Source of the DNA: Shigella phage Buco
Direction: 5' to 3' (one strand)
DNA: 43,630 bases
Sequence record: MK562503
The number at the start of each line of letters is the position of its first letter. The stretch's first letter is position 1. The translations under genes and the position numbers were made by a program. Shown here one piece after another: positions 3,245 through 25,837 of this stretch. The notes below the pieces were generated by a model that made no database searches, was not told the origin of the DNA, and was given only the letters and a program-made list of their open reading frames with translations.

Positions 3245-4961
3245 GCCAGCGTATATCCTCCCCGGGCGAACTATAATCAAAGAGATACTCAACAACCACA
3301 AACAAGAAGAGGTGAAACCAATGCAACTTGAAATTAATGCTAACGCAATCTCTATGTCACTGGTTACCGGTGGCTATCACGATGGGAATGTTTACTACTT
3401 AACTCACGAACTCCCCCTTGAGGAGCTGGCTGATGAGCTGGGCAAGTGGATTAAATCTGAGCACACGCCCGAAGAGGTTATCCTGCGTATGCATCGCACC
3501 TTCTGGTACAGCTACATCGGCCCGGAAATTCTCTTGAGCAGAGACAACCATCCTCGCGGCAGCACAATAGGGCTGCACTGGGAAGATCTAACCGGGGGCA
3601 CGGCCTCAGCAATTCTTACCAAGCTAGGCTGGAAATCAGCTGGTTGGGATCAAGAGATCACTGCTACTAGTCCAGCCGGGCTGGTGCAGGCTGCTCAATC
3701 TCTGCTGCTGGGACATTTTAATCTGGTGCTGCATAAGGATGCGAGTGCTTTTGCTAATGCATTCATTGACGACTACAAGGAGGTAGTCCAAAAAACCGCC
3801 GGGGATATGGGGGTCTACTACAACACAAGCACTGGTCTCTACTCAGTAAAGAAGGTAGATTTAGTTAAGTTGCTTATGAACTTGAACGGGATCTTTGCAA
3901 ACCGGGGTGCAGTGCTGGTTGGCGAAGGCTTCAAAGATGGGAACCCTATGGCTATCCTTGCCCAACCAGTGTTTCGTGATGGGCAGTTGCAGGGCGTGAA
4001 GCTGCAAGAGCAGCGCATGGGGCGCTTCTTGACCAGCATCTTCGGCAACGCGAAAGACTTCCGCCCAGCCATTGATGACCTCAAGGTATACAACAAGAAG
4101 CCCCAGAGCTACCTTTGTGTAACAGAGGAGGAGTGGTATAATGCTTACGAGCAAGGCCCGGGCAGCTGCATGACCGATTATAAGTTTGACTGCTCCCCGG
4201 TGCGCGTCTACGCTACTACATCGCACGGGCTTCCTGATAACGGCCTGCGCCTGTGTATCAACTACACAGGGGAGTTGTTTGGTAAGGGATTCAGGGTGCT
4301 TAATCGCGCCATTGTCAATATTAACACCAAGGAATACGTCCGGGCATACGGTGAAAACGGTGATGCGGTCATGCGCAGCCTGGGTTATGAGCGCGATACT
4401 GGCGCAACCGACGGTGCTATCCTTGCCAAGATTCCGCATCCCCGTAACAACGGTGCGTATCTGATGCCGTATCTGGACGGGTCTGATGATGAAGTTGATG
4501 ACAACGACGATCACTGGGTCATCACATGCAGCGGGGATTATGGCGCTACGGATGCCAACGGATATATCTATGCGGGTGGCCGCTGCTGTGATTGCTGTGA
4601 TGAAAGAGTAGATGAGGATTCACTGACTGAGACAGCAGGTGGGGATGAGGTGTGTGGGGATTGCCTTGCGGAGAACTATGTGGTTCCCTTAGACAGGGAG
4701 GAATACTACCACCGGTGTGATTGCACCCATTCAGAATATGAGGGTGGTTGGGTATATGATAGTGACGTAGTGGATTGCCCAGTGTATGGCTGTGTATATT
4801 ATGGTAATACCATCTTTGCCCAGGGCCAGCGTGTACATGAAGACGCCACTGAGTGGTGCGAGGCGTTAGGTGACCACATCCTGACCGAAGAGGCGGCGGC
4901 CAATCTGGACGAACCTTACTTAGGCAGGGATGAAGAAGATACAGAAGAGGAAGCAGCATAA
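3237..4961 (+). CDS. Large early protein with a Cys-rich, acidic C-terminal region; function unknown
   Basis: In-frame ATG at 3237 overlaps the stop of the previous gene; an alternative start at 3321 has a strong site (gaggtga). C-terminal part carries clustered cysteines (CCDCC, CGDC, CDC, CPVYGC) and an acidic tail. Confidence 0.65.
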   Translation: MDEPAYILPGRTIIKEILNNHKQEEVKPMQLEINANAISMSLVTGGYHDGNVYYLTHELPLEELADELGKWIKSEHTPEEVILRMHRTFWYSYIGPEILLSRDNHPRGSTIGLHWEDLTGGTASAILTKLGWKSAGWDQEITATSPAGLVQAAQSLLLGHFNLVLHKDASAFANAFIDDYKEVVQKTAGDMGVYYNTSTGLYSVKKVDLVKLLMNLNGIFANRGAVLVGEGFKDGNPMAILAQPVFRDGQLQGVKLQEQRMGRFLTSIFGNAKDFRPAIDDLKVYNKKPQSYLCVTEEEWYNAYEQGPGSCMTDYKFDCSPVRVYATTSHGLPDNGLRLCINYTGELFGKGFRVLNRAIVNINTKEYVRAYGENGDAVMRSLGYERDTGATDGAILAKIPHPRNNGAYLMPYLDGSDDEVDDNDDHWVITCSGDYGATDANGYIYAGGRCCDCCDERVDEDSLTETAGGDEVCGDCLAENYVVPLDREEYYHRCDCTHSEYEGGWVYDSDVVDCPVYGCVYYGNTIFAQGQRVHEDATEWCEALGDHILTEEAAANLDEPYLGRDEEDTEEEAA

Positions 4962-6003: not shown

Positions 6004-6024
6004 AATGAGGTTACACGGTATGGC
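6004..6024 (+). promoter_or_regulatory. Phage-promoter-like motif P1 (aatgagGTTACACGGTATgg)
   Basis: 12 of 14 match to the motif repeated at 21378, 42762 and 13102; overlaps the start of the next ORF, so its function here is uncertain. Confidence 0.35.
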
Positions 6025-6655
6025 AAAGGCAATCACTGTTAAGGTTACTGACAAGACTGATTTTGAAGCACACACTGCGTTGAAGCTCGGAGATATCTTG
6101 GTATTCAATGAGGATGGTGTTTATAAATATCCGAATGGTACCAACGGTACTTACAACGACCCCTGGCTTGAGAAGATGCTGAGCAACGGCTCATTCGCGG
6201 AGGTCCTGAGTGAGCGTAAATTCAGAGATACAGAAGCCCCTGAGTGGGCTACTGCCGTCGGGTGCTTCCAGGGCGGGTGGTACTGGGAGGAGGACATCAA
6301 CCAACGTAATGGGGCGCGCTTCCAGAACATAACAGGGACGAAGGCGTACGAGTACGACAACCACACTGTCAAAGGTTGGGACCAGTACAAAGTCCTGCCG
6401 GCGTTCGTGGAGGAGCAGCTACCGCCGGCACCGACTGCTGTCATGTACCTGAATGACACACCTACTGCCCACAGAGAACTTAAGTTACAAGGGGCCAAGG
6501 GATACCCCGGGCACTTGGTACTGAACGTAGGGGATGGTAAGGGTAACTCTAAGTCAATCGTGCTCAGTCCTGAATCAGCACTGCAACTGGCCCATGACCT
6601 GAATCGCATGGGTATGGCCGGTAAACGTAAACTAAAGGAGCAAGCTAATGGCTAA
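6020..6655 (+). CDS. Early hypothetical protein (211 aa)
   Basis: Second in-frame ATG of ORF 6005..6655, with gagg upstream. Confidence 0.55.
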   Translation: MAKAITVKVTDKTDFEAHTALKLGDILVFNEDGVYKYPNGTNGTYNDPWLEKMLSNGSFAEVLSERKFRDTEAPEWATAVGCFQGGWYWEEDINQRNGARFQNITGTKAYEYDNHTVKGWDQYKVLPAFVEEQLPPAPTAVMYLNDTPTAHRELKLQGAKGYPGHLVLNVGDGKGNSKSIVLSPESALQLAHDLNRMGMAGKRKLKEQANG

Positions 6656-6857
6656 GATTGAATATACAAGCGCACACCCTACTGTACAGGTAGGTATCCC
6701 GTTTACTTGGGGAATCAACGCTTACTGGTACATCCAAAGCTCCAATGGGTATTTTCTGTGTTTAAATGATGGTAAAGACGTAACGCAATCAATCGATCCG
6801 TACGAAATATTAAGTGAGCGTGGCTTCCGCTACGCTACGAGCATGGAGCTTAAGTAA
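6648..6857 (+). CDS. Hypothetical protein (69 aa)
   Basis: ORF-track entry; ggagc upstream. Confidence 0.5.
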   Translation: MAKIEYTSAHPTVQVGIPFTWGINAYWYIQSSNGYFLCLNDGKDVTQSIDPYEILSERGFRYATSMELK

Positions 6858-7720
6858 TGGCAGACGCCCCGTGGTTAGTAGCGTGCAAGCGCCTTGCCGT
6901 GGGGCAGACGGCCCGGTTCCGGTGCTGCGGCAGGACCCCTGCCGCGGTACTGTACAACAAGCCAGACAGCTGGGGCATGTTCTGCCACCGCTGCAAGAGC
7001 AGCCCGTACGAGAGGAAACAATACGTATCCCTGGTACAGCCCGAGATACTCCCGCGGGTGCTCCCTGCACCTGCACATCTAATCCGCGTTAGCCAGGCGA
7101 CCCCGGAGACGCGGGCACACGTATACAGTTTCATGGTCAGCAAAGGCTTGATGCCGGATATGCTGGAGGATGCATTATGGTCGGAAGAATTGAAGCGCCT
7201 GGTATTTCAAACCGGGCAAGGGACTTATCTAGCCAGGGCGATGTACGAGCATCAGCAGCCGAAGTGGTTGATGCTGGGCGGGGCGCAGAGCTATGCAATA
7301 GCACCTGCCCGGGTTGGAATTGCACAGACGAATGCACACACAACGCATTCAGCCCAAACCGCTGTCGCGGCACCTGCCAAGACACTGGATGCAGCTGCGG
7401 ACGCCGGATTGGTGGTGCTGACCGAGGATTACCTCAGCGCCCGGAAGGTGCAATGGACCAGCGAAAGGTACTCACCACAGGCTACGGTGTTAGCCGTGGC
7501 CTTACTTGGGACGAGGTTACAGCTCGCGTTAAAGAGCAAACTAGTGCAGGCAAACAAGCCCGTATTGTTGATGCTAGACGGGGATGCAGCCGGGGATGCC
7601 GGGACTGCAAGAATAAGTAAGGAGCTGCGCCCGTTCGTGCCGGTGCGGTCATATCAACTCCCTGGGCTAGACCCCAAGGATATGCAGGTACACCAGATTC
7701 TGGAGGGGTTAAATGTTTAA
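6857..7720 (+). CDS. DNA primase (zinc-binding plus TOPRIM-like)
   Basis: N-terminal Cys cluster CCGRTP...CHRC and acidic LMLDGDAAGDAG motif; sits immediately upstream of the helicase. Confidence 0.7.
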   Translation: MADAPWLVACKRLAVGQTARFRCCGRTPAAVLYNKPDSWGMFCHRCKSSPYERKQYVSLVQPEILPRVLPAPAHLIRVSQATPETRAHVYSFMVSKGLMPDMLEDALWSEELKRLVFQTGQGTYLARAMYEHQQPKWLMLGGAQSYAIAPARVGIAQTNAHTTHSAQTAVAAPAKTLDAAADAGLVVLTEDYLSARKVQWTSERYSPQATVLAVALLGTRLQLALKSKLVQANKPVLLMLDGDAAGDAGTARISKELRPFVPVRSYQLPGLDPKDMQVHQILEGLNV

Positions 7721-7910
7721 GAAAGAACCGGGCCTTACATTGGTCGGTCGTAAACTGTATCGTGGGGTGTTCGGGAATTTATATACGGTTAATAGTTTTG
7801 GTGTAGTTTGCGTTCAGACAGAGGGCTCAGAAAAGTGGGAGCCCTCCCACTACAGCTTAAAGGGTTTTAATGATGCTGTAGAAAAAGGGTATCTCAAAGA
7901 GGAGAACTAA
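7713..7910 (+). CDS. Hypothetical protein (65 aa)
   Basis: ORF-track entry between primase and helicase. Confidence 0.45.
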   Translation: MFKKEPGLTLVGRKLYRGVFGNLYTVNSFGVVCVQTEGSEKWEPSHYSLKGFNDAVEKGYLKEEN

Positions 7911-12505: not shown

Positions 12506-12714
12506 GCAATAAATCAAACGGTATTGGCCTGGCTAGTGTACTCGGCGTAGTGTTCGTGACCCTGAAACTGTGCGGGGTTATCAACTGGTCCTGGGTGTGG
12601 GTGCTTGCACCCTGGTGGCTCCCCCTGGTATTAGCTGTATCGCTCATGGCTAGCCTGGGCGCTGTATGGGCTGTACTGTACAGCATAAAACATCTAATGA
12701 GGAATACTAAGTGA
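12502..12714 (+). CDS. Small membrane protein (two predicted transmembrane helices)
   Basis: 70 aa, strongly hydrophobic (VFVTLKLCGVINWSWVWVLAPWWLPLVLAVSL...). Confidence 0.5.
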   Translation: MSNKSNGIGLASVLGVVFVTLKLCGVINWSWVWVLAPWWLPLVLAVSLMASLGAVWAVLYSIKHLMRNTK

Positions 12715-12917
12715 GCGAGATTAAAGTGGGTGACAAAGTTAAGATAATCCGGCACAAAGACTATCCTAATGAAATTTGGGACAAGGGTCACTTTGCTATC
12801 GGTAGCGTCCATACGGTTAAAGGCATAGACCTACACGACCACCTAGGAGTGTATCTCCGGGATGAAGAGGGGGATGATTATCTGATTCTCTGGGCAGAGA
12901 TTGAGAAGGTACAGTGA
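12711..12917 (+). CDS. Small hypothetical protein (68 aa)
   Basis: GTG start after gagga; sequence MSEIKVGDKVKIIRHKDYP... Confidence 0.5.
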   Translation: MSEIKVGDKVKIIRHKDYPNEIWDKGHFAIGSVHTVKGIDLHDHLGVYLRDEEGDDYLILWAEIEKVQ

Positions 12918-13095: not shown

Positions 13096-13115
13096 GAATT
13101 CCACGGTATAGTACG
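13096..13115 (+). promoter_or_regulatory. Phage-promoter-like motif P2 (ttcCACGGTATAGtacgac)
   Basis: Shares the CACGGTATAG core (13102..13111) with P1, P3 and P4; followed by aggaga at 13120..13125 and a TTG start at 13132. Confidence 0.5.
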
Positions 13116-17025: not shown

Positions 17026-17212
17026 TGCAAAGGAGCTGCGGCTCCTGGCCCTGGAACTCTACTTTACGGAGAAGCATGATGAACTCGAATTGGTTATGTC
17101 TGAAATGGCTGAACGGTTCCCAAGAACACATCGAAGCACGGTTAAAGAGCTGGATTCTATCATTCACGAACAACATGACCTGGATTGCGTAGGGGAGATT
17201 AAACTATGCTGA
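17006..17212 (+). CDS. Hypothetical protein (68 aa)
   Basis: Internal ATG of ORF 16880..17212 preceded by aggagc; overlaps the end of the exonuclease gene. Confidence 0.4.
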   Translation: MASKKRSAKELRLLALELYFTEKHDELELVMSEMAERFPRTHRSTVKELDSIIHEQHDLDCVGEIKLC

Positions 17213-17457
17213 TTAAGCACGGCGACACCTATCGAGTAGATATTGTACGTCCTTACATAGCAAAACCTAATGCACCTGGAATCTCCTATGCAGGTGACTT
17301 TCCTTACTGGTGGCCGCACTCCTGGTCTGTAAACTATGGCGGATATGTACTCTTCTTTGCAGCCAAACCTACGCGTAAGCAAATTCGTAAGATGGTGAGA
17401 TGGGTGCGGGACAGTTTACCATATGATAAACATCCGGAGGATGCGCCGTGGCATTAA
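17206..17457 (+). CDS. Hypothetical protein (83 aa)
   Basis: ORF-track entry; ggggaga upstream. Confidence 0.5.
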   Translation: MLIKHGDTYRVDIVRPYIAKPNAPGISYAGDFPYWWPHSWSVNYGGYVLFFAAKPTRKQIRKMVRWVRDSLPYDKHPEDAPWH

Positions 17458-17879
17458 GGAAGGTTACCCGGGGTCAAATCCGGGCCGTAGCAATGCGCCT
17501 GGCAAAGGAGCAGGGTGGGGTGTGCCCCCTCTGCTTTGAGCCTTTGGACTTCTCAATCAAGGGGGTGACTGGTGATTCAGTTGTCGTCGACCACTGCCAT
17601 ATCACGGGCAGAATCCGAGGTGCTCTGCACCGCTCATGTAATGGCGGGGAGGGTAAAGTGGCCTCCGCCGCTGGGCGGTGGGTGGTGGGTAGTATGCAGT
17701 CTACTGCTGCTATTGCTACTGCGCTACGTCGTATCGCTGACTACCTAGACAAGGAACCGTCGGACCTGGTATACTATACGCATAAAACGCCGGAAGAAGC
17801 TGCTGCCGCATTGAAGATGCGCGCGCGCCGCCGCCGAGTCCAACGTAAGGCAAGAGAGGTTATCAAGAGTGTTCAATAA
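17448..17879 (+). CDS. Endonuclease VII-family resolvase
   Basis: CPLC...DHCHITGRIRGALHRSCNGGEG matches the T4 endonuclease VII zinc/His-Me signature; GTG start after ggagga. Confidence 0.75.
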   Translation: MALRKVTRGQIRAVAMRLAKEQGGVCPLCFEPLDFSIKGVTGDSVVVDHCHITGRIRGALHRSCNGGEGKVASAAGRWVVGSMQSTAAIATALRRIADYLDKEPSDLVYYTHKTPEEAAAALKMRARRRRVQRKAREVIKSVQ

Positions 17880-18354
17880 ACCTATCATAGTATTTGACCT
17901 GGATGGTACGCTGGCAGACGGGCGTCATCGCCTGCATCTTCTGCCAAAGAAGGATTACCACCTTACCGAATCCTGGACGGAGTTTAATCTCGCTGCGGTG
18001 GATGACCTCCCTATTAGGGATAACATCGTGCTTTGTAATGCACTGTACCAGCATTACTACATCATTATCCTAACCGGTCGCAGCGATGTTGCTGGGCAAG
18101 TTACTCGCCAGTGGCTGCAAAAACACGGTGTGATGTATAGTGAGTTGATTATGCGTAAGCAGACGGATAATCGGAAGGATGTACAGATTAAAGAGGAAGA
18201 GCTGCGTAGAATTGGATTAGACCAGATTCTGTGCTGCTTCGACGACTTACCGCACGTAGCCTATCACATGCGTGGCCTGGGACTGACCTGTCATCTGGTC
18301 ACCCACTACGAAGAGCTGCGTACTGACCTAGTGTCACATGGAGAAGATAAATGA
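17869..18354 (+). CDS. HAD-superfamily phosphatase (nucleotidase or 3'-phosphatase-like)
   Basis: N-terminal FDLDGTL motif and later aspartates; 161 aa. Confidence 0.6.
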   Translation: MFNKPIIVFDLDGTLADGRHRLHLLPKKDYHLTESWTEFNLAAVDDLPIRDNIVLCNALYQHYYIIILTGRSDVAGQVTRQWLQKHGVMYSELIMRKQTDNRKDVQIKEEELRRIGLDQILCCFDDLPHVAYHMRGLGLTCHLVTHYEELRTDLVSHGEDK

Positions 18355-18821
18355 AAGCTATCTGTATAGAGCCAGTTCGCAATCTCACCAAAGGTGCGGT
18401 GTATGATATCCGTCCTGTAGATGCAACGTATGTAAAATTAATTATGGATGATGGCTCAGAGAGAGAGTTGTTTGCCCGCCGCTTCCAACCTTTCACTGAG
18501 GCGGTAGCGTCTCCGCAGCCAGATCTGAAGTACGACCAAGGCAAACCTCGCATGTCCTTGCTGTTAAGTGGCTGCCCGCTGGCCCTGGAGGCGGTGGGGC
18601 AGGTGCTGACCTTCGGCGCGCAGAAGTACGAGGCCCATTCCTGGCAGACGGTGGACAACGGACGGGAGCGCTACGAGAGCGCACTCATGCGGCATCTGCT
18701 CGCTATCGGTAAAGGTGAGGACAGAGATAGTGAATCCGGCCTGCATCACCTGGCGCACGCCGCCTGCAATGCCCTGTTTATTCTGGAACTTGAACTTCGT
18801 AAGCAGCAAGCAAAACAATAA
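18351..18821 (+). CDS. Hypothetical protein, possible nucleotide pyrophosphohydrolase-like helical domain
   Basis: Pattern KYDQGKPRMSLL...FGAQKYEAHSWQ...RYESALMRHLLA...GLHHLAHAACNALFILE; family assignment is from memory and tentative. Confidence 0.5.
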   Translation: MKAICIEPVRNLTKGAVYDIRPVDATYVKLIMDDGSERELFARRFQPFTEAVASPQPDLKYDQGKPRMSLLLSGCPLALEAVGQVLTFGAQKYEAHSWQTVDNGRERYESALMRHLLAIGKGEDRDSESGLHHLAHAACNALFILELELRKQQAKQ

Positions 18822-18826
18822 CTATT

Positions 18827-18835
18827 TGATATAAT
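18827..18835 (+). promoter_or_regulatory. Extended -10 element (TGaTATAAT) just upstream of the RNAP start
   Basis: Perfect TATAAT at 18830..18835 preceded by TG at 18827..18828; no good -35 hexamer. Confidence 0.25.
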
Positions 18836-18851
18836 GGGAGAATATGCGCCT

Positions 18852-21332
18852 ATGACTAGCGCCCCGCTGTTCACTTATCAGTTCCACGGCACTGACGTTA
18901 CAGAAGCACAGGTACAGCGCCAGGCTCAGCTGGAGCAGGACTACCGCACCCGCGGCCTTGACCGCTCCCGGAGACTGGTACGCGAAGCTATTGAGTCCGG
19001 CAGAGTATCGACGCTACCGGCGGCACAGCGTCTGATTGCTGCCGCTTATGATACGGTAGCGCTCCAGCTGGATCGTATCAAAGCAGAGAAGGCCCCGGGG
19101 GTCGGTGGCCGCTACCGCGCGCTGCTTCGACAGGTGCCGACCACGGTGCTTGCCGCGCTGTCCCTGACTAAGTGCATTGACCTCATGGCGTGTGGGAACG
19201 GGCACAGCACCAACAGCTCTGCGCAGTCGGTTATGTCCGCACTGGGCCGACTGGTGGAATCTGAGCTGCTGAGCATTCAGCTGAAGGCCGTGGCTCCGGC
19301 GTACATGAACAGGGTGCACGAGTATCTGAAAGAGCGCCACACTAAGAACTCGTCGCATATTCTCCAGACCTACCGGGCGTCAGCAGAGAACGTACACTTC
19401 AACCACGAGAACTGGAGCAATGCCCAGTGCATCTCCGTTGGCCGGTTGCTGATGCAGGCAGTATACAGCACTGGCATGTTCCAGTGGCGCAAGGGTTCTG
19501 ATGCTAGCCAGCTTACGTACCTGGAACCCTCTGAGGAGGTGCAGGGGGTGCTAACGGACCTGGTACAGAATGCAGACTCAGTGACATACAAGCCGCCGAT
19601 GCTGGTGCCGCCGCTGGCGCATGAGACAATCTTCTCTGGCGGGTACATTACGGACATTGACCGGCGCGGTACTTACAAGAACACCCAAATAACGCGCAGG
19701 CAGCTCCGTGACGTGGCGAACAGCTTCAAGGAAGCCCAGGGTATTAAAGACGCTCTGAACCGCGCACAGAGCGTCCCATACCGTATAAACAAGGGTATGC
19801 TGGAACTGGTGCGAGAGGCTCAGCGCCTCGGGGTGGCTGTAGGTATGCCCAGCACTAACCCAGCACCGAAGCCGCAGTGGTATCTGGACGGGGTGCCAAA
19901 GGAGACCTACAGTGAGCGCCAGCTTGACGACTTCAATGAGTGGAAGCTCATGATGCGCGAGTGGTACAACGAGGACCGTACCCGTATCAGCCAGCTCCGC
20001 CAAGTGGCCCGTACCCTGCAAATGTCTGAGGAGTTTAAAGATGAGCCAGCCCTGTACTTCCCGACCTGTGTGGACTGGCGATATCGCGTCTACTTCAAAT
20101 CCTCCCTGCATCCCCAGGGTTCTGATTTGCAGAAAGCCCTGCTGTGTTTTGGGCGCGGAAAGGCCCTTGGCGCACGCGGGTTATTCTGGCTTAAGGTACA
20201 CGTCGCTACATGCTTTGGTTATGACAAAGCCTTATTCGAGCAGCGTGCAGCTTGGGCTGATGCAAACTATGCAATCATTGAACAGGTTGCAGATAACCCC
20301 TTTGATTCTGAGTCTTTTAAACTTGCCGATTCGCCGTGGTGTTTCCTTGCGGCATGTATCGACCTGGTTAATGCTACCCGCTCTGGCAGCCCGGAGCAGT
20401 ATGTATCGCACATCCCAGTCGCTATGGACGCTACAAACTCTGGTGGGCAGCACTTCTCCGGAATGCTCCGAGACCCGGTAGGCGGACGCTTAACGAACCT
20501 GTTCTGGGAAGGCAACGAGGAGAAGGCGGACCTGTACATGGACGTGAAGCAGCGTACAGACTCCAAGGTTATCATGGATTTAGCTAATCCAGACTTCGTG
20601 GTACAGGCGCACTACTGGATGGAGAATAGCATCACCCGTACCATGACCAAGCGCCCGAGCATGACCTACTTCTACAGCGCCACGGTGCGCTCCTGTAGCG
20701 ACTACATCGTTACCGGCGCTAAGGGGGAGGGCTATGAGGGCACGGAGGAATACAGTCTCTGGAAGCTGGCAGGTTATCTGGCCCCGCGTATGCGCAACGC
20801 TATCGAGGAGGCCAACCCGGCAGCGGCGGCAGCTATGCATTACTTGCAGCAGGTGGCCCGACGGGTCCCGGTGAAGCTGCATCTGCAATGGAAAACCCCG
20901 TTAGGTGGGCTCGTTATCAATCGTTATACCGAGTCTAAGGAGACCCGTGTCCGCATCGACAGCATGAACCTGACGTCTCTGCTGGCATACAACCGGGACT
21001 ACGAAATTAATAACAGGAAGAAGGCCGCTTCCGGCATCGCTCCGAACTTTGTGCATAGTCTGGATGGTACGCATCTTATGATGGTTATCACTGCATTTAG
21101 CGGCGATATCGTGCCTATTCACGACTCGTTGGCGACACATGCTTGTGACGTTGATGAGATGCACCGGGTAATCCGTGAGCAGTTCGTGAAGCTGTATACC
21201 GAGAACGACCCTCTGCAAACCGTAGCTGATGCAGCAGTAGCAGTAGGCGCTGACCTATCAGGTATCGAAATGCCGGAACATGGCAGACTGGACCTGCGGC
21301 AAGTGCTTGATTCGCCCTTCTTTTTCTGCTAA
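18852..21332 (+). CDS. Single-subunit DNA-dependent RNA polymerase (T7 RNAP-like)
   Basis: About 826 aa; catalytic motifs PVAMDATNSGGQHFSGMLRD and IHDSLATHA. Start taken at the ATG with gggagaa upstream; ORF opens at 18834. Confidence 0.9.
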   Translation: MTSAPLFTYQFHGTDVTEAQVQRQAQLEQDYRTRGLDRSRRLVREAIESGRVSTLPAAQRLIAAAYDTVALQLDRIKAEKAPGVGGRYRALLRQVPTTVLAALSLTKCIDLMACGNGHSTNSSAQSVMSALGRLVESELLSIQLKAVAPAYMNRVHEYLKERHTKNSSHILQTYRASAENVHFNHENWSNAQCISVGRLLMQAVYSTGMFQWRKGSDASQLTYLEPSEEVQGVLTDLVQNADSVTYKPPMLVPPLAHETIFSGGYITDIDRRGTYKNTQITRRQLRDVANSFKEAQGIKDALNRAQSVPYRINKGMLELVREAQRLGVAVGMPSTNPAPKPQWYLDGVPKETYSERQLDDFNEWKLMMREWYNEDRTRISQLRQVARTLQMSEEFKDEPALYFPTCVDWRYRVYFKSSLHPQGSDLQKALLCFGRGKALGARGLFWLKVHVATCFGYDKALFEQRAAWADANYAIIEQVADNPFDSESFKLADSPWCFLAACIDLVNATRSGSPEQYVSHIPVAMDATNSGGQHFSGMLRDPVGGRLTNLFWEGNEEKADLYMDVKQRTDSKVIMDLANPDFVVQAHYWMENSITRTMTKRPSMTYFYSATVRSCSDYIVTGAKGEGYEGTEEYSLWKLAGYLAPRMRNAIEEANPAAAAAMHYLQQVARRVPVKLHLQWKTPLGGLVINRYTESKETRVRIDSMNLTSLLAYNRDYEINNRKKAASGIAPNFVHSLDGTHLMMVITAFSGDIVPIHDSLATHACDVDEMHRVIREQFVKLYTENDPLQTVADAAVAVGADLSGIEMPEHGRLDLRQVLDSPFFFC

Positions 21333-21338
21333 CTAAGT

Positions 21339-21369
21339 GGGTGGTTTTACGACCTAAAATCACCCTTTT
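21339..21369 (+). terminator. Stem-loop plus T4 tract after the RNAP gene
   Basis: gggtggtttta / taaaatcaccc 11-bp stem (one G-U pair), 5-nt loop, then tttt at 21366..21369. Confidence 0.45.
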
Positions 21370-21371
21370 CA

Positions 21372-21395
21372 AATGGTGTTACACGGTATAGTAGG
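21372..21395 (+). promoter_or_regulatory. Phage-promoter-like motif P3 (aatggtGTTACACGGTATAGtag)
   Basis: Core GTTACACGGTATAG at 21378..21391, followed by gggaga and the ATG at 21407. Confidence 0.55.
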
Positions 21396-21406
21396 GAGAA
21401 CCCCCG

Positions 21407-21814
21407 ATGACCTATTCAGTTAAACTATATAACTGGTCAACACATTCTGACTATATAAAAACCCTTATTCAAGAGTTCCATATCTATGGTCATGGTATAG
21501 AGCTAGGTATGGACCCTAGTGAACATTTAGAGAGGGTATTAAACTGGTCAGTTAACAATTCTGTTATAGTGCTATACTCTGGTGATATCCCTGTAGGTAT
21601 TGTAGGGGTAGTGCCACAGCTACAGAGAGACCCGCACTTCCCGGGGTTGAGCATGCACACCAGCTTCACAGTGGTTCTACCGGGGTATCCGGGAGCTGCG
21701 CTGAAACTGTACCGGGCATTGCGAACCGTGGCTAAGTTAAATGGAGCTGACTGGCTATGTACCAGCAAGCGCACTGATAACCTAACTTACACGTTAAGAG
21801 GACACCCACTATGA
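21407..21814 (+). CDS. Hypothetical protein in an AT-rich segment (possible small acyltransferase-like fold)
   Basis: 135 aa; own promoter-like motif and ribosome-binding site; first roughly 200 nt visibly AT-rich relative to flanks; the acyltransferase resemblance is weak. Confidence 0.6.
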   Translation: MTYSVKLYNWSTHSDYIKTLIQEFHIYGHGIELGMDPSEHLERVLNWSVNNSVIVLYSGDIPVGIVGVVPQLQRDPHFPGLSMHTSFTVVLPGYPGAALKLYRALRTVAKLNGADWLCTSKRTDNLTYTLRGHPL

Positions 21815-22071
21815 GTGGAGTTAAAAACATTCTGAGCGACGCCACTGACCTGGTAGGGCTCACTAACACAGACGCCCTGGAGGCTCAGCAGAAGGCTGCT
21901 AAAGAGCAGCAGCGCGCTATGGAGAACGAAGCTGCCCTGCAAGCTAACGGCGCAGCAGACAATATTACATCGGTAAGCTCAGGTGGCGCTGCATCAGCAT
22001 CCTCTGATGCAATCACCGCATCCCAGAAGAAGCGCCGCGCTGGTAGCATGAGCAACGTGCTGGGCATCTAA
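21811..22071 (+). CDS. Small hypothetical protein upstream of portal (86 aa)
   Basis: ORF-track entry; Ala/Ser/Gln-rich. Confidence 0.5.
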   Translation: MSGVKNILSDATDLVGLTNTDALEAQQKAAKEQQRAMENEAALQANGAADNITSVSSGGAASASSDAITASQKKRRAGSMSNVLGI

Positions 22072-22080
22072 GGAGATACA

Positions 22081-23634
22081 ATGCAAGGGCAGCAGAAAGA
22101 ATCACTGGAGTCCCTGTTTACTAAGGACTCGGACCCGACTGTATTAGACGCTGCCGAGCAATTTGCCCAGTGGACACTACCTACAGTGCTCACCCGGGAT
22201 ATCTCCGGAATGGACGGTAAGCGCACCTCCCTGCACCGCGACTATCAGAGTACGGGTGCGGTACTGGTGAACTCGGCATCGACCAAAGTTACTAATGCAC
22301 TGTTCCCACAAGGAGCCCCGTTCTTCCGGTTCGTGGACTCGCCAGACATGGCTGCTGCGGTAGCAGAGCTAGGTATCAATGGCACCGTGCAGTCACAGCA
22401 ATCACAAATTGAGTTATCAGCATCCAGCCTGGTGTTCTCTCGGGATAACTACGCCGCATCTCTCCGTGCCGTGAAATTACTCATGGTGACCGGGAATGCG
22501 TTGGAGTATTTCGACGAGGGCACCGGGCGTTCTCACATTTACAGTGTCCGAGAATACACGGTCCGCCGGGATGGTTCCGGGAATATCCTCCGGGTTGTGC
22601 TCAAAGAGCGCATCGCGGCTATGGACTTACCACAAGAGTTCCGGAGTGCACACCTGGGTCAGAAAGATGACTACGACGACGTAACGCTGTACACTGGTAT
22701 CTGTCTTGAAGATAACAAGTTCAAGATTTACCAGGAGGTGCAGCAGCAGCAGATTGGTGATGCCAGTACCTACCCCATTGACGAGTGCCCGTATACGGTG
22801 CTTGTGTGGAATCTGGTCAACGGAGAGCATTACGGTCGCGGCCTGGTTGAGGATTACGCGGGTGACTTTGCACGCTTGTCTGTGCTGAGCCAGGCCCTGA
22901 CCTTGTACGAGGTTGAGGCTGCGCGGCTGTACAACGCTGTGAGCGCAGGGGCGGGCATTGATGTAGACGCGGCACAGGCTGCTGAGACCGGCGATTATGT
23001 GCAGACCAGCGCAGCGCCGGGAACTAACCCGGGTATCTGGGCGGTTGAGAATGGTTCCGATAGGAAGATTATGTCTCTCCAGAGCGAAATCAGTATGATT
23101 GAGCAAAAGCTGGCGCGCGCATTCATGTACGCCGGGAACACTCGCCAAGGCGAGCGTGTTACAGCTTATGAGATTCGTACTAATGCTCAAGAGGCTCAGA
23201 ACTCTCTTGGAGATGCGTACAGCATCCTGAGTGACCACTGGCTGCGTAAGCGCGCTTATCTGTACACCGTGTACCAGTACCCTCCGATGCGTGCTATGTT
23301 TACACTTGGGGCTACCACCATTCAGATTCTGGTGGGTACAGCCTCGTTGAACAAGGCGGCGCAGGCAGACAGGTTACTGGAAGCGTCACAGAGTATTCAG
23401 CTTGTACTGCCAGTGCTGCAAGGGGCTACGAAGCGCACCAATCCGGACGCGGTCGTAGACTTTATTCTGGATGCATTCGGCGTAGTGAGCAGCAAGCTCA
23501 TGTACACCGAGGAGCAGCTTAAGCAGATTCAGGACCAGCAGGACCAGCAGCAGGCGGACCAGCAACGTAATCTGGAATTGGCACAGGCCAACCCAGAAGT
23601 CGCCGGGCAGCAGCTCGGTTTAATTCCATCATAA
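22081..23634 (+). CDS. Portal (head-tail connector) protein
   Basis: 517 aa; aaggag upstream; first large gene of the structural block, at the position of T7 gp8; Gln-rich C-terminus. Confidence 0.75.
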   Translation: MQGQQKESLESLFTKDSDPTVLDAAEQFAQWTLPTVLTRDISGMDGKRTSLHRDYQSTGAVLVNSASTKVTNALFPQGAPFFRFVDSPDMAAAVAELGINGTVQSQQSQIELSASSLVFSRDNYAASLRAVKLLMVTGNALEYFDEGTGRSHIYSVREYTVRRDGSGNILRVVLKERIAAMDLPQEFRSAHLGQKDDYDDVTLYTGICLEDNKFKIYQEVQQQQIGDASTYPIDECPYTVLVWNLVNGEHYGRGLVEDYAGDFARLSVLSQALTLYEVEAARLYNAVSAGAGIDVDAAQAAETGDYVQTSAAPGTNPGIWAVENGSDRKIMSLQSEISMIEQKLARAFMYAGNTRQGERVTAYEIRTNAQEAQNSLGDAYSILSDHWLRKRAYLYTVYQYPPMRAMFTLGATTIQILVGTASLNKAAQADRLLEASQSIQLVLPVLQGATKRTNPDAVVDFILDAFGVVSSKLMYTEEQLKQIQDQQDQQQADQQRNLELAQANPEVAGQQLGLIPS

Positions 23635-25794: not shown

Positions 25795-25799
25795 ACAGA

Positions 25800-25837
25800 G
25801 GCCCTGTCCATTCGTTTGGGCGGGGCCTTTTTTTTTT
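25800..25837 (+). terminator. Rho-independent terminator downstream of the capsid region
   Basis: 10-bp GC-rich stem (ggccctgtcc / ggacggggcc, two G-U pairs), 8-nt loop, then T10 at 25828..25837. Confidence 0.7.

Follow-up and report, generated by a model that had tools for sequence, protein, structure and literature searches.

Probable middle-to-late transcription boundary behind the RNA polymerase gene of Shigella phage Buco, with a putative KP34-type promoter and a predicted Rac-like acetyltransferase gene

Between the gene for its single-subunit RNA polymerase (RNAP) and its portal gene, Shigella phage Buco (sequence record MK562503) carries a short region, positions 21339-21814, which a preliminary description had taken for a horizontally acquired moron with a private promoter. 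The window, i.e. the whole stretch of DNA analysed (43,630 nt), is a complete phage genome of the phiKMV/KP34 type with every long open reading frame (ORF) on the plus strand. In our reading, middle transcription gives way to late transcription in this region of a KP34/phiKDA1-like phage of the Autographivirales, and the region is as such a conserved, ordinary core feature. It is a new, diverged example of known things, namely of a KP34-type promoter behind the RNAP gene and of a Rac-like GNAT gene; in KP34-like phages, low GC content together with a promoter marks the conserved middle-to-late transcription switch, not a moron. The overall best explanation, to which we assign a probability of about 0.65, is that this boundary holds a KP34-type promoter, that its first cistron codes for a Rac-like GNAT protein and that the AT-rich end of this cistron is due to selection. 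The single elements noticed in the preliminary description are real: the stem-loop with a T tract after the RNAP stop, the best copy of a repeated promoter motif, and an ORF of 135 codons (ORF135) with AT-rich first 200 nt or so. Its proposed transcript start near 21392 agrees well with the start at 21394 that is predicted by analogy with KP34. The elements are as follows.

21339-21369, plus strand: terminator-like hairpin with 11-bp stem and 5-nt loop (21339-21365), followed by TTTT
21371-21393, plus strand: putative phage-RNAP promoter, AAATGGTGTTACACGGTATAGTA, predicted +1 at G 21394
21394-21399, plus strand: Shine-Dalgarno sequence GGGAGA, read from the sequence, 7-8 nt ahead of the ATG
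21407-21814, plus strand: ORF135, minimal GNAT-fold protein (by structure model) of the Rac / KP34 gp38 / phrog_5167 family, first cistron downstream of the promoter
21345-21616, no strand: AT-rich tract with 100-nt GC below 0.39 (minimum 0.33), spanning hairpin, promoter and the first ~70 codons of ORF135

The promoter motif GTTACACGGTATAGTA is found five times in the window at no more than three mismatches, always on the plus strand (6010, 13098, 21378, 32875 and 42762). Only 0.18 copies are expected and none of 100 shuffled sequences reached five. The copy at 21378-21393 equals the column-wise majority consensus of all five. In an alignment of 10 sequences from close relatives this 16-mer does not vary, although its flanks diverge. 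Local AT-rich dips accompany four of the five copies; the dip at 21378 is the deepest and reaches furthest downstream. The other copies are these.

32875-32890, plus strand: one mismatch; inside the structural region, at a position matching KP34 33721-33736 and LUZ19 P009
42762-42777, plus strand: one mismatch; near the genome end; may correspond to the copy at 475-490 in KP34, provided that the window is circularly permuted
6010-6025, plus strand: weaker copy, two mismatches; early/middle DNA-metabolism region, local AT-rich dip
13098-13113, plus strand: weaker copy, two mismatches; early/middle DNA-metabolism region, local AT-rich dip

Promoters of related phages have been mapped at the same place. 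RNAP of Klebsiella phage KP34 initiates at nt 22213 from the strong promoter TAATGTTACAGGAGTA, as determined by Lu et al. using in vitro transcription and 5' rapid amplification of cDNA ends; this promoter sits directly behind the RNAP gene and recurs at 33721, with a variant at 475 (PMC6834552). Its start site is located 3 nt ahead of the ATG of gp38. In LUZ19, promoters P007 and P008 lie immediately downstream of the gene for RNAP (PMC10914365). The Buco copies at 21378 and 32875 match the KP34 promoter positions. Like the strong promoter of KP34, T(A/G)ATGTTACAGGAGTA (PMC6834552), and P007/P008 of LUZ19 (PMC10914365), the motif described here stands right after the RNAP gene and is found once more among the structural genes. 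The Buco and KP34 promoters share TGTTACA...AGTA followed by GG at the start site; they differ in the stretch between these conserved blocks, which reads CGGTAT in Buco and GG in KP34, and in four extra core bases in Buco. Five putative copies in Buco contrast with only three strong promoters reported in KP34; the RNAP of Buco may accordingly be employed at an earlier time or at a larger number of sites. Promoter-like variants were also detected just upstream, within ~25 nt of the start codon, of the ORF135 orthologue in Enterobacter phage phiKDA1, Erwinia phage Micant, Pantoea phage LIMElight, Escherichia phage PAS7 and Cronobacter phage Peggy, and the one in LIMElight is annotated there as phage promoter.

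The motif is thus conserved, multi-copy, confined to one strand and placed at KP34 and LUZ19 promoter positions, as is expected of a promoter of the KP34 class. Sequence comparison identifies the copy at 21378 as the conserved phage-RNAP promoter behind the RNAP gene, positional equivalent of the KP34 strong promoter. By analogy with KP34 the transcript is predicted to start at G21394, which would place the Shine-Dalgarno sequence at the extreme 5' end of the late transcript. Another sequence, the putative "Kp34likevirus phage promoter" AGCCTATAGC... (PMC4411677), was set aside because a template taken from a region with a sequence present twice in the genome was inactive with KP34 RNAP (Lu et al., PMC6834552).

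The gap between RNAP and GNAT genes is an insertion hotspot in relatives. In Peggy it contains an annotated HNH homing endonuclease (locus L001, 1853-2446) and in Pseudomonas phage C171 it comprises 812 unannotated nt, apparently with an HNH-like ORF (L010, 2102-2913). The gap of phiKDA1 is represented by 386 nt of non-coding DNA with two promoter-like copies (L005, 2591-2976). LUZ19 and phiKMV carry here an extra small gene, gp27 (L003, 4284-4535 in LUZ19).

The hairpin, GGGTGGTTTTA-CGACC-TAAAATCACCC (21339-21365), starts 6 nt past the RNAP stop and is followed by TTTTC. Its predicted stability of -13.5 kcal/mol (z = -3.7) was matched by none of 200 shuffled sequences; in a longer context of 61 nt, z is only -1.7. 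With five G-C pairs among 11 bp it offers the stable stem-loop of an intrinsic terminator; a run of at least five U after the stem is absent, the stem being followed by TTTT and then C. The generic terminator scan did not call this hairpin since its T run is short (four T). That scan, which covered sigma-70 promoters as well as terminators, gave no excess over shuffles, and a scan of 21000-22200 against Rfam returned no family. Hairpins of different sequence stand at the same place in seven other loci, six from close metagenomic relatives and one from PAS7 (-12.6 to -17.6 kcal/mol, z between -2.7 and -4.4); all eight loci of the folding set, Buco included, thus possess one. Stems in the relatives are GGGTGATTC/GAATCACCC, GCCCTTGTAA/TTACAAGGGC, GGGGTAG/CTACCCC and others, most of them with a T-rich run behind; sequences 3' of the hairpin include GTTTC, GTTTT, TTTATTTAT, TTAT and TTCTT. 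We infer that the hairpin either terminates transcripts with the RNAP message, possibly in a leaky manner, or stabilises their 3' ends. Hairpin and promoter would together form the middle-to-late boundary.

ORF135 occupies a fixed place in the order of genes. Its stop overlaps the start of the next gene (ctATGAgt, ATGA at 21811-21814), and the generic scan detected no terminator-like site between ORF135 and 25797, beyond the capsid gene. Its surroundings consist of the following features.

18834-21332, plus strand: single-subunit phage RNAP gene, 832-aa ORF, final gene ahead of the switch; stop TAA at 21330-21332
21811-22071, plus strand: 86-aa small virion protein (LUZ19 gp29 / T7 gp7.3-like), phrog_3112 with E 1e-17
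22081-23634, plus strand: portal (head-tail connector) gene, 517-aa ORF; orthologues in relatives contain PF12236 Head-tail_con
25797-25830, plus strand: strong terminator-like site from the terminator scan, 14-bp stem and T9, 3' of the capsid gene and a small ORF

With tblastn, 113 phage records were found to contain a homologue of the ORF135 product. The arrangement RNAP - (hairpin/promoter) - GNAT - small virion protein - portal was present in every locus inspected, i.e. in Peggy, phiKDA1, VLCpiA1b, PAS7, KP34, Micant, LIMElight and C171 and in 12 metagenomic contigs. The same slot is filled in Slopekvirinae, Limelightvirus, Erwinia phage Micant and Kantovirus, and in Krylovirinae it is filled by Rac. 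Homologues of KP34 gp38 occur in 261 phage records, compared with 267 records whose RNAP is 60-80% identical to that of Buco. KP34 gp38 itself, a "hypothetical protein" of Slopekvirinae that is sporadically annotated as acetyltransferase, belongs to the same family, resides in the same slot and has the verified strong promoter immediately upstream; the two loci differ in that Buco has a hairpin and a 74-nt gap, whereas the KP34 gap is 24 nt long.

The protein is considerably diverged. ORF135 is ~30% identical to KP34 gp38 and 51% identical to its counterpart in the best isolate (Peggy), and 89% identity is attained only in metagenomic contigs. Corresponding tblastn values for RNAP are 78.5% (Peggy), ~70% (phiKDA1) and ~65% (KP34). 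Megablast of 20800-22400 against phage records gave zero matches, hence no sequenced isolate is close at the DNA level; metagenomic contigs reach 86-91% nucleotide identity around the region. As judged by a dN/dS of 0.105 against the closest contig (0.06 for RNAP, 0.03 for portal), ORF135 is under purifying selection.

Two of the records with RNAP and GNAT genes are labelled as "Listeria phage LM 4-11-1" and "LM 4-14-1" (OR846985.1 and OR848265.1; 7.6 and 9.2 kb). In tblastn they give results equal to those of Escherichia and Salmonella phage records from that submitter's series, which raises the possibility of a wrong host label or of a contaminated sample.

How does this conservation bear on the proposed moron, a recently acquired foreign gene with its own promoter that is kept for host-interaction or anti-defence benefit? 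Such a gene would account for the lowest-GC 200-300 nt of the genome, for an ORF with the third-lowest GC among 55 and for a promoter directly upstream of it. Like morons of the lambda/HK97 type, which are promoter-gene-terminator inserts, ORF135 combines atypical composition with an upstream promoter. Unlike them, it is not variable among relatives, has no terminator of its own, overlaps the next gene and shares its promoter with genes downstream. Presence in the same slot in every relative inspected, across several subfamilies, and absence of an own terminator in a gene whose stop overlaps its neighbour contradict two of the three properties that define a moron. What had been described as private promoter turns out to be the conserved one behind the RNAP gene, which serves the downstream structural genes as well. 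Taken together with the purifying selection on ORF135, this makes a moron extremely improbable. Recent horizontal acquisition is rejected on account of synteny, of the normal GC of the 3' half and of the low GC common to orthologues. Universal conservation at the locus with a structural role had been named in advance as evidence that would speak against a moron; conservation was indeed found, while no structural role is known.

One relative (L014) might seem to favour mobility of the gene. Its RNAP gene is 80-99% identical to that of Buco in sliding windows and its portal gene is back above 80%, whereas the GNAT and gp7.3-like genes between them (4020-4560, against 21430-21950 of the window) fall to 63-69% nucleotide identity with saturated dS. 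This drop suggests that the pair was exchanged between related phages or evolves fast. The pattern is one of allele replacement inside a conserved slot, not of moron insertion.

Base composition is uneven, in agreement with the preliminary description, and the dip is at the 5' end of ORF135. The lowest-GC 200-nt window of the whole sequence starts at 21406 (GC 0.36; mean 0.542, sd 0.046) and the lowest-GC 300-nt window at 21304 (0.387). The first 198 nt of ORF135 have GC 0.354 and a GC content at third codon positions (GC3) of 0.303, compared with GC3 of 0.62-0.67 in the flanking RNAP and portal genes. The remaining 3' part is normal in both respects (GC 0.548, GC3 0.571). Among 55 ORFs, ORF135 ranks lowest in GC3 of the first 66 codons (mean 0.578, sd 0.099), second-lowest in total GC3 and third-lowest in GC. 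Orthologues from enterobacterial phages have GC of 0.40-0.49, against 0.46-0.56 in flanking genes, and the first 198 nt are lowest in each of them; the dip is weaker in Micant, LIMElight and Pseudomonas phages. Since the 3' half has normal GC and since the trait is common to orthologues that are only 30-50% identical, it is not a recent import. These comparisons indicate that the AT-rich 5' end is a lineage-wide trait of the ORF135 gene, strongest beside the promoter. Its likeliest cause would be selection at the DNA or RNA level beside the promoter, ahead of foreign origin.

One form that such DNA-level selection could take is a replication origin. In the primary origin of T7, an AT-rich stretch follows the promoter. 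Promoter and AT-rich tract in the 5' end of ORF135 could correspondingly constitute a transcription-primed origin of the T7 type, similar to that at phi1.1A/B behind gene 1; this would explain AT-rich synonymous sites and is compatible with the best explanation of the protein. The layout is indeed T7-like, with phage promoter or promoters directly behind the RNAP gene and then AT-rich DNA. Every T7 origin requires a T7 RNAP promoter (PMC8373140). Duplicated promoter-like motifs exist in the RNAP-to-GNAT gap of several relatives. GC3 is as low as 0.30 in the first 66 codons, and synonymous divergence from the closest relative (pS) is 0.30 there and 0.495 in the rest, a suggestive difference based on few sites (~13 versus 26 changes). 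On the other hand, neither GC skew nor AT skew, taken cumulatively, inflects at 21.4 kb, although this test has little power for a genome coding on one strand; the dip is weak in Micant, LIMElight and Pseudomonas phages; and a literature search for an origin of the phiKMV type found nothing relevant. We therefore consider an origin at this place very unlikely.

We return to the protein. The AF2 model of ORF135, built from a 16-sequence alignment, has pLDDT 95.7 and the strand and helix order of a GNAT protein (strands E and helices H: E3-8, H10-27, H29-32, H37-47, E52-58, E61-68, E82-90, H97-111, E116-124, E127-134). This corresponds to the GNAT core beta1-alpha1-alpha2-beta2-beta3-beta4-alpha3-beta5-(alpha4)-beta6; as there is no helix between the last two strands, ORF135 appears to be a minimal version. 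In a Foldseek search of the PDB, 154 hits were obtained at E<=1e-3, and every one of the top 50 is a GNAT (TM 0.47-0.71). The weak acyltransferase-like pattern mentioned in the preliminary description is thereby supported by a predicted GNAT fold.

Sequence profiles place this protein in a family of its own. Its best PHROG match is phrog_5167 (E 9e-38), to which KP34 gp38 also belongs (1e-59), and the second-best is phrog_3986 (E 7.9e-5). The latter is the family of LUZ19 Rac (gp28), which matches phrog_3986 at 2e-66 and phrog_5167 at 0.031. A profile search of 1.84 billion representative proteins yielded only 57 clusters at E<=0.001, ~90-160 aa in length save a few long repetitive sequences. 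Word-indexed protein searches detected close relatives only (7 for ORF135, 1 for Rac), and a profile search of PDB sequences gave only weak GNAT matches (E 0.48 and 1.2). Against the curated GNAT model, with its cut-off of 20.7 bits, LUZ19 Rac passes with 23.0 bits and the Peggy orthologue scores 13.3.

Rac of LUZ19/phiKMV (gp28) is a predicted GNAT protein; its gene is situated downstream of that for the phage RNAP and shares an overlap with the first structural gene (PMC7552054). Rac requires its acetyl-CoA pocket, raises lysine acetylation and triggers cleavage of the alpha subunit of host RNAP, and it acts on host proteins when expressed alone (PMC7552054). The ORF135 gene has the same position, downstream of the RNAP gene and overlapping the first structural gene. 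BLASTP finds 26% identity between ORF135 and Rac over 81 aa (E 6e-4). The hhalign probability of the ORF135 family is 99.1% against the Rac clade (E 4e-19), 98.0% against a stricter Rac set and 92.4% against a single Rac sequence. The ORF135 profile also picked up three bridging sequences (P0052, P0062 and P0063), whose matches to Rac range from 3e-20 to 3e-15. Shared residues comprise a D-P-H-x-G motif between strands 3 and 4, an alanine of helix 3 and a C-terminal tyrosine; D75, H77, G80 and Y128 of ORF135 are invariant or nearly so. Homology is remote, in keeping with separate membership in phrog_5167. Apart from slot, overlap, small GNAT fold and profile homology of 98-99%, the proteins differ: identity is ~21-26%, ORF135 has 135 aa and no C-terminal tail compared with 157 aa in Rac, and its beta4-alpha3 loop is two residues shorter (hhalign) and lacks the arginine. 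The loci differ as well, as no gp27-like gene separates RNAP and GNAT genes in Buco, and so do the hosts, that of Buco being probably enterobacterial to go by its nearest phage relatives.

Profile and model-based fold comparison thus establish ORF135 as a remote homologue and positional equivalent of LUZ19/phiKMV Rac. Acetyltransferase activity is predicted from fold and homology, and the same homology lends support to the host-interaction role that the preliminary description had considered possible.

According to the explanation we prefer, events at the boundary would proceed as follows. The conserved hairpin with its short U run would end transcripts carrying the RNAP message, or stabilise their 3' end; as in phiKMV-like phages, the host polymerase presumably makes these transcripts. 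Nine bases past the hairpin element, the phage-RNAP promoter would fire at ~21394 and start the structural-gene transcript, a step that is suggested by comparative evidence and by experiments in KP34 and LUZ19. ORF135 would be the first cistron, followed by the gene for the gp7.3-like virion protein and then by the portal gene. After takeover by the phage RNAP, ORF135 may use acetyl-CoA to acetylate one or a few proteins, the target most probably being a host protein, and may in this way help host shutdown; in LUZ19 the outcome is cleavage of the C-terminal domain of the host RNAP alpha subunit. The AT-rich 5' end could make the DNA melt easily and leave the beginning of the late transcript weakly structured, or it could throttle translation of a toxic enzyme.

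Several observations weigh against this explanation. KP34 and VLCpiA1b have no hairpin, their RNAP-to-GNAT gap being just 24 nt; given this and the run of only four U, the hairpin may terminate weakly or have a different function. RNA that begins at the predicted start shows less structure than the average, though only moderately so: over 200 nt its z is +1.6, and 5.5% of genome windows are still less stable. Weak 5' structure alone hence fails to explain the AT-rich tract. The tract extends ~200 nt into ORF135, longer than a simple effect on translation initiation needs. Cleavage of the alpha subunit is limited to the genus Phikmvvirus and is not brought about by the homologue from LKA1 (PMC7552054); it should not be taken for granted in ORF135. 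Pfam yielded no hit for the protein at E<=10, and NCBIfam none that is meaningful. Its P-loop, canonically Q/R-x-x-G-x-G/A between beta4 and alpha3, reads G92-Y-P-G95-A-A97, with glycine and alanine present and Q/R absent, and it varies across the family (GYSKAG, YHPKAV, GNSKAV). Of the four mutated Rac pocket residues Q, Y, V and R, only V appears to be identical in ORF135; this holds for our own mapping onto the hhalign alignments, in which the residues were taken as QYV...R of QYVLPRYRNSG and aligned to TVVLPGYP--GA of ORF135.

These last features would be expected of a catalytically inactive GNAT scaffold, in which the fold is kept as a binding module, e.g. as an inhibitor of a host protein, with no acyl transfer. 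No Pfam GNAT hit, a degenerate and variable P-loop, the missing helix between the last two strands and a pocket largely unconserved relative to Rac all point in this direction. They are countered by near-invariance of D75, H77, G80 and Y128, a pattern typical of catalytic residues, by occurrence of D-x-H-x-x-G in both the Rac and T7 gp7 families and by the fact that Rac needs its acetyl-CoA pocket. We regard an inactive scaffold as quite unlikely.

A connection with T7 is suggested by structure comparison. T7 gene 7 ("host range", 133 aa, phrog_2746; locus L023, 1631-2032) lies ahead of gene 7.3 and of portal gene 8. The 86-aa Buco protein belongs to the same PHROG as LUZ19 gp29 (phrog_3112), and an orthologue of gp7.3, a "wedge" protein, is reported to be conserved ahead of the portal gene in phiKMV-like phages (bioRxiv 10.64898/2026.05.18.726046). 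In a Foldseek search of a viral structure library, the best hits of the ORF135 model come from its own family (LIMElight, TM 0.85; KP-Rio, TM 0.90), followed by Rac-side proteins and then by "host specificity protein A / host range" proteins of the T7 group (TM 0.68-0.73, E ~1e-7). The AF2 model of T7 gp7 (pLDDT 92) is likewise minimal and GNAT-like in fold, and its elements follow one another as they do in ORF135. In return it finds the LIMElight, PP90 and KP-Rio proteins, and its best viral structure matches beyond its own family include annotated GNAT proteins along with Rac/KP34-type proteins. By sequence, hhalign aligns the ORF135 family with T7 gp7 at 73.6% (E 2.9e-5, below threshold) with D-x-H-x-x-G in register, and the Rac family with gp7 at 31%; T7 gp7 weakly matches phrog_5167 (0.01) and phrog_3986. 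The predicted fold, the strand-helix order and the slot ahead of gp7.3 and portal genes are the same, Foldseek hits are reciprocal and D-x-H-x-x-G aligns. T7 gene 7 differs in its place: it does not come after the RNAP gene, and promoter phi6.5 precedes it with two cistrons in between. The models are suggestive of a single family, spanning Autographiviridae, to which ORF135 and T7 gp7 would both belong. The Rac paper (PMC7552054) makes no mention of gp7, and we found no published mechanism for the T7 protein.

This relationship raises the alternative that ORF135 is a factor of virion maturation or host range, which would modify or chaperone the neighbouring gp7.3-like protein or proteins of the tail while virions assemble and would leave host proteins alone. 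It would suit the T7 gene 7 slot before 7.3 and portal gene 8, the reciprocal structure hits, the aligned motif with its weak phrog_5167/phrog_3986 matches, and the overlap of the ORF135 stop with the start of a virion gene. However, sequence support is sub-threshold for both families (73.6% for that of ORF135, 31% for that of Rac), no mechanism for T7 gp7 is available in the literature we found, and Rac, the sole relative tested, acts on host proteins when expressed alone (PMC7552054). On balance we judge a role in virion assembly unlikely, and a Rac-like function remains our preferred one.

A broader proposal, which we hold to be possible rather than probable, is that ORF135/KP34 gp38, Rac and T7 gp7 make up one ancient minimal acetyltransferase family encoded upstream of gp7.3-like and portal genes across T7, SP6, phiKMV and KP34 phages. 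D-x-H-x-x-G...Y would then be the active site, and the conserved AT-rich 5' end might add a role at the DNA level, e.g. that of a T7-like origin. If this is true, the products of T7 gene 7 and of related genes could be tested for protein acetyltransferase activity.

A linkage of T7 gene 7 to the same predicted fold is a by-product of this analysis. Its more immediate outcome concerns the KP34 gp38 family, "hypothetical protein" in ~260 phages of therapeutic type infecting Klebsiella, Enterobacter and Escherichia, which gains a testable Rac-like acetyltransferase function; such function would be relevant to how KP34-like phages take over their hosts. Literature searches for a study of a Drulisvirus acetyltransferase returned nothing relevant. 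The predicted promoter sequence belongs to a new RNAP/promoter pair related to the KP34 system, which is used for in vitro RNA synthesis.

Further downstream, the site at 25797-25830 is the first strong terminator-like site after the 21378 promoter in the generic scan. A Rho-independent terminator is conserved within the structural genes of KP34-like phages (PMC4411677).

The ends of the window carry an exact direct repeat of 127 nt (1-127 = 43504-43630). It is either an assembly overlap, 127 being a common largest k-mer, or part of a terminal repeat. With this repeat the unique genome would amount to ~43,503 bp, and the window is possibly circularly permuted.

A variable accessory slot is situated just upstream of the RNAP gene (17860-18750). 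Unlike the ORF135 slot, it holds two ORFs, 17869-18354 and 18351-18821, for which alignment with the closest relatives fails (sliding identity 0.2-0.4); the first of them carries a HAD-like FDLDGTLADG motif. Small plus-strand ORFs at 6648-6857, 7713-7910, 12711-12917 and 17206-17457 have GC of 0.43-0.47, similar to or below that of whole-gene ORF135, and are better candidates for acquired accessory genes than ORF135 is.

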